The position numbers were made by a program, and so were the translations under genes. The notes under the pieces are model-generated. The model had not been told where the DNA came from. It saw nothing but the letters and a program-made list of their open reading frames with translations, and did no database searches. A DNA stretch of 64,000 nucleotides from an uncultured Acidimicrobiia bacterium (GTDB lineage Bacteria > Acidobacteriota > Terriglobia > Versatilivoradales > Versatilivoraceae), in NCBI GenBank assembly GCA_963786955.1, contig CAWBAT010000005.1, positions 1 through 64,000 on the forward strand, written 5' to 3'. Positions 10,550-12,449 of this stretch are shown in pieces. Every line of letters starts with the position of its first letter. Position 1 is the first letter of the stretch.

Positions 10550-10738
10550 GAGATGCGAGATTGGAGATAGGGGATGCGGAATGCAAGGTGAACGATGCGT
10601 GATACGAGATACGAGATGGAAGATGCGAATTGCCGTATAGGAAATGCAGGTTGCCATGCGCGAGTACCTGAAATCTCGTATCCTGCATCCCGCATCCCAT
10701 ATCCCGTATCCCGCATCCTATATCTCCTATCTCTAATC
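10550..10738 (+). repeat. Heptamer-armed hairpin element, copy 1
   Basis: (GATRCGR)n arm, about 45-nt unique core, inverted (YCGYATC)n arm. Outer arms GATTGGAGATAGGGGAT and ATCTCCTATCTCTAATC can pair. Confidence 0.85.
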
Positions 10739-11707
10739 ATTCCTTTGTTATTGTGTTCCCCTGCGTTTGCCCACGAGGCACGCCCTGCATACCTCGAGAT
10801 TAAGGAAACCGTGCCTGACCAATTCAGCGTGTTGTGGCGCACTCCAGTTCTTGCCGGTATGCGTCTGCCCATCCTTCTGAAATTGCCTGACGACTCGAAG
10901 AACCTGAAAGAGCCCACTGTTCAGGAACTGGCCGATTCCCTCGTGGAGCGCCGATGGTTGAATGCAGGGCCGAATGGGCTGGCCGGAAAGCGCATCGAAT
11001 TCCTTGGACTGCAGGCCACAATCACCGACGTTGTGGTCCGCGTTGAGATGCTCGACGGCAGAAAATGGACAACCATTGTTCACCCTTCCCAACCATGGGT
11101 GGAGCTTGCCGCTTCGCAAACCAGGCTGGGTGTGATGGGCACCTACATCGTGCAGGGTATCCGGCACATCCTCTTCGGCGCCGATCATCTGCTCTTCGTG
11201 CTTGGTCTGCTGCTGATCGTGAAAGATCACTGGATGCTGCTGAAGACGGTAACGGCCTTCACCATAGCGCACAGCATCACCTTGGCCATCGCGACCCTGG
11301 GCTATGCCGAAGCGCCAGTGGTTCCTCTGAATGCCGCCATCGCTCTGAGCATTCTTTTCCTCGGACCGGAGATCGTACGCTCGTGGCGTGGCGAGACCAG
11401 TTTCACGATCCGCCATCCTTGGGTGGTGGCTTTTGCGTTTGGGCTGCTGCATGGCTTCGGGTTTGCCAGCGCGCTCACGAGTGCCGGTTTGCCGCGAACG
11501 GAGTTGCCGGTTGCGCTGGTGAGCTTCAATGTTGGCGTAGAGCTCGGGCAACTTGGTTTCATCCTGCTGGTTCTGGCGTTGGAACGATCCTTCTCGATAC
11601 TCGAAGTCCGTTGGCCGCGGTGGGCTCAGGCACTTCCGGGATACGCCGTCGGTGGACTCGGCGCATTTTGGACTATACAGAGAGTGGCAGTGATGATTAC
11701 AGGATGA
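10595..11707 (+). CDS. HupE/UreJ family protein (long type with periplasmic N-terminal domain); start uncertain, within the repeat element
   Basis: Signal ...SPAFA|HEARPAYL; GIRHILFGADHLLFV, TAFTIAHSITL, FGLLHGFGFA, FNVGVELGQL. Confidence 0.88.
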   Translation: MRDTRYEMEDANCRIGNAGCHARVPEISYPASRIPYPVSRILYLLSLIIPLLLCSPAFAHEARPAYLEIKETVPDQFSVLWRTPVLAGMRLPILLKLPDDSKNLKEPTVQELADSLVERRWLNAGPNGLAGKRIEFLGLQATITDVVVRVEMLDGRKWTTIVHPSQPWVELAASQTRLGVMGTYIVQGIRHILFGADHLLFVLGLLLIVKDHWMLLKTVTAFTIAHSITLAIATLGYAEAPVVPLNAAIALSILFLGPEIVRSWRGETSFTIRHPWVVAFAFGLLHGFGFASALTSAGLPRTELPVALVSFNVGVELGQLGFILLVLALERSFSILEVRWPRWAQALPGYAVGGLGAFWTIQRVAVMITG

Positions 11708-11862
11708 TGCGATGCGGGATGCGAGATCCGAGATGCGAGATGGTAGTTACGGGATACGAGGTGCAGGATACGAGATTCCACGTACTCGCGAACGGCAATC
11801 AGCACTTCCTAAATGGCATCCCGAATCTCGCATCTCGGATCCCCTAACTCGCATCCCGTATC
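11706..11862 (-). repeat. Heptamer-armed hairpin element, copy 2 (core inverted)
   Basis: Its reverse complement contains ...TGCCATTTAGGAAGTGCTGATTGCCGTTCGCGAGTACGTGGAATCTCGTATCC, homologous to the cores of copies 1 and 3. Confidence 0.85.
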
Positions 11863-11879
11863 AAGTTCCTTATTAAGTT

Positions 11880-12293
11880 ATGAGCTACAGAACACTTGAG
11901 ATTTGGCAACTGGCTCGCGACTTATCGATTGAGATTCATTACATGACGTTGGAGTCGTTGCCGAAGCTGGAAATGTATGAAGAAGCGTCGCAAATTCGCC
12001 GCTCAGCAAAATCTATCAGATCCAATATTGTCGAAGGGTATGGGAGGCGAAGATACAAGTTGGAGTTCGTCCGCTTTTTGACTTATGCACACGCCTCATG
12101 CGATGAGACAGTTGATCACCTTGAAACCCTGCACGAAACAGGATCTCTCGCAGATGACGCTTTTTATGAGCGGCTTCATCAAAAGCTGAACCAATTAGGT
12201 GGAAAACTTAACCAATTCATTCAAAGTGTGGAGTTGCAACACCGTTCGGTTCGGGAGGATAGCGCTGAGTACAAGCGAGATGAAGAAGAGTGA
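11880..12293 (+). CDS. Four helix bundle protein (23S rRNA intervening-sequence protein / bAvd-like family)
   Basis: [51 protein letters not shown] family signature. Confidence 0.9.
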
Positions 12294-12449
12294 TGGATAT
12301 GATATGGGTTAATAAGCGATGGGAGATACGAGATGGAAGTTGCGAAATACCGTATAGAAAATGTAAGTGGCCGTGCGCGAGTACCTGAAATCTCGTATCC
12401 CGCATCTCGTATCCCGCATCAAGCATCCCGTATCCCGTATCTCGCATCC
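12292..12449 (+). repeat. Heptamer-armed hairpin element, copy 3
   Basis: 12323-12400 matches 10606-10683 at 70/78 positions by manual alignment; inverted heptamer arms. Confidence 0.85.

Follow-up and report, generated by a model that had tools for sequence, protein, structure and literature searches.

A PF05635 four-helix-bundle gene between inverted heptamer arrays in a bacterial HupE operon: comparison with rRNA intervening sequences and REPIN/RAYT systems

RAYTs, the proteins of the REP/REPIN-RAYT systems (repetitive extragenic palindromes, their doublets and the REP-associated tyrosine transposases), are HUH/Y1 (IS200/IS605-like) transposases; each gene is flanked by its own inverted repeats, and gene-less doublets are dispersed. 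The short tandemly repeated repetitive (STRR) sequences of cyanobacteria are comparable heptameric repeats. Avd, a protein of diversity-generating retroelements (DGRs), binds RNA within the DGR complex. Further relatives are described in the literature. The Coxiella intervening sequence (IVS) has a 28-bp terminal stem and tandem GACAGAT heptamers, and RNase III cuts it at the first repeat (PMC4990558). Heptameric simple sequence repeats (SSRs) occur in Xanthomonas (GGGAATC) and Nostoc (GGGGAYT), with 70-75 convergent pairs per Xanthomonas genome, and G-quadruplexes have been proposed for them (PMC4692102). PF05635 and Avd are related according to CDD/Pfam (PMC10053308). Here we analysed a 64-kb window, positions 1-64000 of contig C5 in the 5.65-Mb assembly of the source genome (G000), in contig coordinates. 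In a HupE operon of this window, a gene for a four-helix-bundle (4HB) protein of family PF05635 stands between two of three hairpin-forming elements (e1, e2 and e3) whose arms are tandem GATRCGR heptamers. The locus is probably a member of a widespread class, in which a PF05635 gene and its cognate repeats form a horizontally spreading cassette that has gene-less derivatives. In our best reading, which draws on analogy, this class would be IVS-like by design and REPIN/RAYT-like by logic.

Heptamer words and PF05635 protein clades

The source genome holds eight PF05635 loci, two of them frameshifted, and by eye all eight genes are flanked by inverted heptamer arrays. The words are AAGGTCN, GAGTYCG, GATRCGR, TCATTGN, a GCCAAAT-like and an AAGGGTY-like word. 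We scored the flanks by aligning, without gaps, the 250 nt before each gene with the reverse complement of the 250 nt after it and taking the best match; the threshold was 11.0 (99th percentile for 400 positions drawn at random from G000). When two congeners (G001 and G002) were included, 21 of 24 PF05635 genes scored above it (7/8 significant in G000, 9/9 in G001 and 5/7 in G002); the three below were G0_C6b (10.5) and two broken G002 genes (9.5 each). The PF05635 proteins of these genomes cluster by word. The window's clade comprises only three of them, from the window operon (C5), from a paralogous operon copy in G000 (C4) and from G002 (G0_C5, G0_C4 and G2_C3). The frameshifted genes (G000:C3:167545-167863 and G000:C6:456835-457139) give two profile matches each and still have inverted arrays at their flanks; they are either decaying cassettes or assembly errors.

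Among genome contigs we found 79 relatives of the window protein, 30 at 62% identity or more (27 with usable flanks) and 49 at 58% or less. A locus was counted as carrying the word if it had at least two exact GATRCGR upstream (sense) or at least two exact YCGYATC downstream. By this count the word accompanies 22 of the 27 closer relatives versus 5 of the 49 more distant ones, many of which have GTTRCGG-type words instead. Summed over the 27 loci, the upstream side has 119 sense and 9 antisense words and the downstream side 116 antisense and 21 sense. The deposited labels of the carriers (record titles) name Acidobacteriota, Nitrospirota, Verrucomicrobiota, Planctomycetota, Kiritimatiellota, Thermodesulfobacteriota and others. 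Pfam matches of the neighbouring genes at 21 loci give at least 14 contexts, for example AI-2E transporter, TrkH/UDG, MlaE/ABC ATPase, Bac_transf/Wzy_C, purA and GT2/LPG_synthase. The layout is mostly a simple array-gene-array; hairpin-type flanks like those of the window occur at four loci (L053, L056, L057 and L058). In the sequences compared, word and protein subfamily are linked across labelled phyla and gene contexts, with fixed polarity. The preliminary description had proposed that the elements are associated with 4HB genes, and this is true of the arms but not of their 45-nt core.

Arrays are also found apart from such genes. There are 140 period-7 arrays with at least three copies in G000; 137 have a 7-nt consensus and 124 of these fall into seven word families, and most of the array loci are without a nearby PF05635 gene. 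Dispersed gene-less arrays belong to the six word families other than GATRCGR, as with AAGGTCN (22 loci, two adjoining a gene) and TCATTGN (13 loci). Solo hairpins, which we defined as two same-family arrays facing each other within 250 nt, have the order word, then reverse complement, in 13 of 14 cases (9 of 10 without GATRCGR), and this is the polarity found around PF05635 genes. Because the stability of a hairpin is independent of this order, the bias suggests either that the solo hairpins descend from cassettes or that a strand-specific reader acts on them. In G000, GCAGAAR arrays occupy 12 loci, and several of these are hairpins of about 170 nt (C4:300820-300994, C2:134281-134453 and C6:833505-833676); no PF05635 gene with the matching word was found in G000, and G001 has one (C85:2092-2409). 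A GAGTYCG solo hairpin (G000:C8:384395-384570) begins right at the stop codon upstream of it; G002 has only part of this hairpin and G001 lacks it.

Insertion into the HupE operon

Pfam matches give the operon order PPIase, HupE_UreJ_2 (HupE_2), PF05635, HupE_UreJ and a second HupE_UreJ (Table 1). A comparison of orthologous operons, as had been proposed for this locus, found empty sites at both junctions: in G036 (same class, with operon copies G036a and G036b) and G004 (same family) for e1, and in G036a for the cassette. The PPIase stop overlaps the HupE_2 start in both G036 copies and in G004. From the PPIase stop to the His codon of mature HupE_2 there are 68, 68 and 80 nt in G036a, G036b and G004, versus 265, 175 and 335 nt in C5, C4 and G002. 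At the other junction, the HupE_2 stop overlaps the HupE start (ATGA) in G036a, and the mature HupE His follows that stop by 80 nt, versus 787, 765, 804, 667 and 747 nt in C5, C4, G002, G001 and L053. Since these more distant relatives have overlapping stop and start codons at both junctions, hairpin e1 and the 4HB cassette are insertions relative to them. The PPIase C-terminus and stop are kept in the hairpin-free relatives. The GC content has a trough at the 4HB gene (45-46% vs. 55-62% in its neighbours), and inverted arms are present at the cassette ends; in a transposon or miniature inverted-repeat transposable element such arms would come together with a target-site duplication (see below).

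The first heptamer of e2 overlaps the HupE_2 stop TGA (11705-11707), just past the former ATGA, and the right arm of e3 ends at the HupE ATG. Hairpin e1 is located where relatives encode the HupE_2 signal peptide. The elements had been placed at gene junctions, and they do mark three junctions; they are not purely intergenic, with e2 running over a stop codon and e1 within a signal-peptide coding region. A stretch of 43 nt separates the PPIase stop from e1, and its homology to the ancestral HupE_2 start region is suggestive only. L058 has a cassette of the window's subfamily at precisely the site that the gene-less e1 occupies in the window, the PPIase/HupE_2 junction, and this agrees with the proposal that e1 is a solo copy. 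The congener G001 has GATRCGR arrays at the PPIase/HupE_2 junction and, at the HupE_2/HupE junction, another PF05635 gene (45.6 bits) with CGAAATC-type arms. The C-terminal tail of its HupE_2 (ending NRNPNLEI, then the stop; L003 2480-2545) is encoded by the CGAAATC array, so the other cassette inserted into the frame at its 3' end. A related HupE operon from another metagenome-assembled genome (MAG) carries extra GATRCGR hairpins beyond those flanking its 4HB gene (L053 487-632, 1594-1733 and 2410-2526); thus decorated successive junctions are not unique to the window.

Mature HupE_2 begins at the His codon 10772. The sole in-frame ATGs ahead of it in C5, at 10595 and 10616, are both within the left arm of e1, thus the right arm of e1 may be translated as the HupE_2 signal peptide. 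The frame is open across this arm in C5, C4 and G001 and closed in G002. The G002 gene has one base fewer in the T/C run of the signal peptide (L002 ~1525-1545), which shuts the frame 24 codons before the mature His; this closure reflects either a pseudogene or a homopolymer assembly error. The word itself bears on reading frames: GATGCGR contains ATG and gives TGA after T, and its complement is stop-free in all frames. The host would tolerate insertions at gene ends because the arrays can re-seal the neighbouring reading-frame ends.

Table 1. Features of the HupE operon in the window (contig coordinates)
Feature	Position	Strand	Details
PPIase (Rotamase_2), first gene of the operon	9499..10506	+	Pfam PF13145, E 1.3e-17
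Element e1, gene-less hairpin	10550..10738	+	left GATRCGR arm ~10550-10634, core 10635-10672, right YCGYATC arm 10673-10738
HupE_UreJ_2 (HupE_2) reading frame	10595..11707	+	ORF list; Pfam PF13795, E 1.8e-43
Element e2, upstream hairpin of the cassette	11706..11862	+	left GATRCGR arm 11706-11776, inverted core 11777-11815, right YCGYATC arm 11816-11862
4HB gene, 137 aa, PF05635/S23p/Avd-like	11880..12293	+	Pfam E 7.9e-27
Element e3, downstream hairpin of the cassette	12292..12449	+	left GATRCGR arm 12316-12348, core 12349-12389, right YCGYATC arm 12390-12449
HupE_UreJ gene, 3' of the cassette, short signal peptide (MILFLIAFWPVSAFA then H)	12450..13019	+	Pfam PF04955, E 5.6e-57
Second HupE-like gene, closes the conserved operon block	13016..13621	+	Pfam PF04955, E 6.3e-10

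The three GATRCGR-armed elements that bracket HupE_2 and the 4HB gene were recovered with the sequence and coordinates first reported for them, and Tandem Repeats Finder gave period-7 rows in the 64-kb window at these elements only. A repeat search showed e1 and e3 to be direct copies (10601-10731 vs. 12318-12448, 131 nt, 82%; BLAST E 9e-32). Element e2 is inverted relative to both e1 (10594-10738 vs. 11711-11855, 145 nt, 73% complementary) and e3 (11717-11844 vs. 12322-12449, 128 nt, 76% complementary). Internal inverted arms span 66 nt in e1 (10552-10617/10673-10738), 45 nt in e2 (11711-11755/11818-11862) and 31 nt in e3 (12318-12348/12390-12420), which confirms that each element can form a hairpin and that the second copy is inverted. 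RNA folding gave -81.6 kcal/mol (z -6.4), -77.2 kcal/mol (z -6.2) and -52.8 kcal/mol (z -2.8) for e1, e2 and e3, respectively, and for each of them 0 of 200 shuffles was as good.

In BLAST against the whole 5.65-Mb genome, the elements matched only their own locus and the paralogous operon (C4:381224-383024). This operon (C4:380189-384196) is 85% identical along its length and has the 4HB gene too. When C5, C4 and G002 were aligned, the coding parts were 88-95% identical with hardly any indels, and the three elements were 60-92% identical with many indels, often in 7-nt steps, so that no other part of the operon is less conserved. All three operons have the 45-nt core in e3, but in e1 and e2 it occurs in C5 only. 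A search of metagenome contigs with an IUPAC pattern of the core matched one contig, which carries this same operon. The core is thus confined to this operon lineage and is ruled out as part of a mobile unit, as it had been taken to be; it is a local loop sequence copied among the C5 elements and does not travel. At synonymous sites, G002 HupE_2 is nearer C4 (synonymous differences per site, pS, 0.207) than C5 (0.242). The 4HB gene and e3 of G002, by contrast, resemble C5 more closely. This lends the operon a mosaic appearance, as though the paralogues had swapped segments. The pS of the 4HB gene is below that of the flanking genes in two pairs (C5-C4, 0.18 vs. 0.30, Fisher P = 0.03; C5-G002, 0.14 vs. 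0.24, P = 0.04) but not in C4-G002 (P = 0.47). A recent exchange of the 4HB gene between the paralogues was considered and set aside, as this signal is too weak and may come from composition.

The 4HB protein matches PF05635 with 94.0 bits (cut-off 33.8) over profile positions 2-105 of 106, and a sequence search of the PDB gave 2gsc as the sole match (E 3.2e-7). The AlphaFold model (pLDDT 91.2) has helices at 7-25, 29-55, 60-87 and 93-120 and a disordered acidic tail. Foldseek ranked Xcc0516 first (2gsc_B, TM 0.79/0.92, rmsd 1.1), then BT_0352 (2rld, TM 0.71/0.86), followed by Avd (4dwl) and DGR ribonucleoprotein entries. Xcc0516 is pentameric (PMC4990558). The family background given in the preliminary description, that is S23p of the 23S IVSs and kinship to Avd, is supported by the fold search and by PMC4990558 and PMC10053308. 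The ratio of nonsynonymous to synonymous differences per site (pN/pS) is 0.29 (C5-C4) and 0.18 (C5-G002) for the 4HB gene and 0.03-0.06 for the HupE genes, which indicates that selection on the 4HB gene, as judged from these alignments, is purifying and weaker than on the HupE genes.

A promoter and terminator scan of 9300-13800 gave one promoter-like and seven terminator-like sites, not above shuffles and none at the elements. Rfam on 9000-14000 found no rRNA and nothing for the elements; two sub-threshold plant miRNA matches on the hairpin (E up to 1) were dismissed as noise. Elsewhere in the window, tandem repeats unrelated to the heptamer arrays are found at 18982-19114 (period 54, 2.5 copies) and 19419-19535 (period 21/42, 5.6 copies).

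RNA pairing and the weighing of explanations

The e2 and e3 copies had been proposed to pair and loop out the 4HB open reading frame (ORF). On this basis the cassette could be an mRNA IVS, whose e2:e3 stem is cut by RNase III, freeing the 4HB message and splitting the HupE_2 and HupE messages, with the pairing under selection. Its precedent is the Coxiella IVS, which encodes a protein of the same family and has a stem cut by RNase III (PMC4990558). In the minimum free energy (MFE) structure of 11700-12455, e2 pairs with e3 end to end through 122 long-range pairs (-285 kcal/mol vs. -241.9 for the parts folded apart, z -10), and the cassettes are mostly co-oriented with their neighbours (of 21 loci, both neighbours are on the strand of the gene in 13, both on the opposite strand in one, and mixed in seven). 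Looping out is therefore thermodynamically favoured in C5, but the ORF-enclosing stem falls from 122 pairs there to 68 in G002, 40 in G001 and 8 in the paralogue C4, whose MFE structure keeps the local hairpins. Pairing of the sense-strand RNA would favour G:U, and our wobble test for RNA-level selection on the arms found no G:U excess: mismatches are G:T 94 vs. A:C 82 at 31 loci of the window's clade, and G:T 56 vs. A:C 57 in 22 cassettes of the genus. The pairing therefore shows no sign of selection. Moreover, the local hairpins would form first during transcription, and a cut in the e1 stem would leave the body of HupE_2 without its sole in-frame ATGs. With its support being thermodynamic, we consider the mRNA IVS explanation unlikely.

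Public sequencing runs were compared with the window; 20 share small fractions of its words (at most 0.16), all of them as contigs, and four were aligned. No transcript ends were seen in these four, which consist of contigs only. Joints that skip the 4HB gene (11741 to 12389, 12390 or 12399) have other letters between and were read as other loci or organisms, not as excision. In X20, an rRNA-depleted sediment metatranscriptome, the summed depth of the arm-matching contigs was 15117, 972 and 3227 (10596-10732, 11692-11828 and 12377-12513) against at most 56 in coding bins, a depth that is given per contig and sums other organisms, and hints only that array-bearing RNAs abound in that community. 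The three DNA runs had no such excess at the arms. The deep X20 contigs may be excised rRNA IVSs from other organisms.

Two further explanations were considered. In a strict REPIN/RAYT-like system, the 4HB protein, alone or with a recruited host enzyme, would copy or move the hairpins, and its gene would be single-copy per word family and flanked by its own repeats. About one gene or gene pair per word family is indeed set against many gene-less loci, the inverted cognate arrays flank 21 of 24 genes, the polarity of solo hairpins is fixed (13/14), and the GAGTYCG case shows solo hairpins gained or lost within the genus. What speaks against this system is a protein without a catalytic domain, a GCAGAAR family with 12 loci and no matching gene in G000, a GATRCGR word that is not dispersed there, and the lack of a visible target duplication; we regard it as somewhat less likely even than the mRNA IVS. 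The elements might also be ordinary heptameric SSRs or REP-like intercistronic hairpins produced by polymerase slippage, any role of which would lie in HupE mRNA stability or translational coupling, with the 4HB gene a chance neighbour. SSRs without a protein partner are documented in Xanthomonas and Nostoc (PMC4692102), and the arrays vary by 7-nt steps as slippage predicts. Chance neighbourhood is hard to reconcile with inverted arrays at 21 of 24 PF05635 genes against about 1% of random positions, or with the same word accompanying the same protein subfamily in at least 14 other contexts; the operon is hairpin-free in G036 and G004, and the hairpins are its least conserved part. This explanation is already disfavoured, and we hold it to be very improbable.

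We favour the spreading cassette, by a route that would run as follows. The cassette probably entered at the ATGA stop/start overlap of HupE_2 and HupE, and the gene-less hairpin of the same word, e1, sits at the preceding PPIase/HupE_2 overlap. The ring-forming protein is predicted to bind the heptamer word of its own arms, probably single-stranded, and the gene-less hairpins would be cassette derivatives or landing pads. Arrays of the same word, which change fast by 7-nt steps, may exchange sequence through recombination or gene conversion; such exchange would explain the e3 core copied into e1 and, inverted, into e2. RNase III excision of the IVS-like stem is possible, not as a selected function.

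A number of observations weigh against the cassette reading, in addition to the arm mismatches and the variable stem described above. No target-site duplication is visible at e1, the cassette or one solo hairpin, in comparisons with relatives that are only 70-87% identical. For the cassette we saw neither a recombinase, a nuclease motif nor an excision product that would account for its movement. The proposal of a small autonomous mobile unit thus stands as regards an inserted unit, by its empty sites, its GC trough and the occurrence of the same word in other contexts, but not as regards autonomy. PF05635 is the only Pfam match of the 4HB protein, with no catalytic domain and no HUH/Y1 transposase. 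The word family of the window has just two loci in G000, both in the HupE operons, with no dispersed copies. In G001, GATRCGR arrays occur at the HupE operon and on at least five other contigs, and none of its nine PF05635 proteins is more than 36% identical to that of the window; either the arrays persist there without a matching gene or the gene is in the unassembled 5%. The random positions behind the flank threshold are mostly coding DNA, not intergenic. The taxon labels of the MAGs are as deposited, and neighbouring genes were called crudely, as the longest stop-to-stop ORF. Three of the related loci are not independent contexts, as they lie in the same operon type, L052 and L053 at the same junction and L058 at PPIase/HupE_2. 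Co-inheritance alone could produce the link between word and protein.

A further, tentative extension is that PF05635 proteins in general recognise 7-base repeats by their sequence, with a separate word for each clade, and drive or guide the spread of the hairpins and of their own gene, with HupE translation made protein-dependent at this locus. If this is true, one system would explain the excess of heptameric repeats, the ORF-bearing 23S IVSs and a very large family that lacks a function. The only in-frame ATGs of HupE_2 lie in a -82 kcal/mol hairpin, which would then need the protein to open it, and this would be an addiction-like hold on the operon. For the very large PF05635 family structures have been solved but no function is established, the over-representation of heptameric repeats in bacteria lacks an explanation, and the origin of ORF-bearing rRNA IVSs has been open since the 1990s. 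The clade-specific link of a protein and a 7-base word joins these three into one question, whether a ring binds its word and with what effect on DNA or RNA. The locus is a good test bed for it, with a full cassette, a gene-less hairpin, a paralogue, empty sites, another cassette in a congener and host frames entering the arrays. A literature search, with subscription journals outside its coverage, found no paper describing PF05635 genes that lie in protein-coding operons and are flanked by inverted heptamer arrays specific to their clade.

Comparison with known systems

The Avd protein of DGRs, as in Bordetella phage BPP-1, is a homologous four-helix bundle. Unlike in DGRs, no DGR-type reverse transcriptase (RT) stands beside the 4HB gene; pairs of template and variable repeats were not searched for. 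Of the RT sequences in the window, the nearest are the ORFs 2369-3748 and 4103-4990, about 6.9 kb or more upstream of the 4HB gene; a broken RT match lies at 465-650. Rfam matches to group II intron domains in window positions 2-5075 lie at 2-78, 2029-2199, 2239-2315, 3761-3833 and 5003-5075. A link to an RT or DGR was rejected, as the genome has four PF00078 matches, three of them in the window, and all lie within group II introns. The earlier remark that no transposase or RT is adjacent is right for the RT beside the gene, but RT genes of group II introns are present in the window at 465-4990.

The heptameric SSRs of Xanthomonas and Nostoc and the cyanobacterial STRR repeats resemble the arrays described here in being tandem 7-mers of variable length, mostly intergenic, near an upstream ORF and often in convergent inverted pairs. 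They differ in that no protein partner is named for the SSRs ('S23' occurs 0 times in the text of PMC4692102), whereas each word family described here goes with a PF05635 clade.

REPIN/RAYT systems share the logic of about one gene or pair per repeat family, inverted repeats of its own around the gene, dispersed gene-less intergenic hairpins (in G000 for word families other than GATRCGR) and a clade-specific repeat. The cassette protein, however, is a small helical bundle without a known catalytic site, the repeat is a tandem 7-mer array and not a single palindrome, and the cassette gene itself appears to cross phyla.

The ORF-bearing IVSs of 23S rRNA differ from the cassette in their host, which is helix 45 (or 25) of the 23S rRNA and not a protein-coding operon. 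The cassette arms are long degenerate arrays (5-12 units), each its own hairpin, and gene-less copies exist; their pairing is without a sign of selection, and RNase III excision is a candidate only. In other respects the two are alike. In the IVSs of Coxiella burnetii and Leptospira (S23p ORF), as in the cassette, terminal inverted repeats able to close a long stem enclose the gene for a protein of the same family, and in Coxiella tandem heptamers (GACAGAT there) stand upstream of the ORF (PMC4990558). For the ORF-bearing 23S IVSs, too, mobility has long been suspected.

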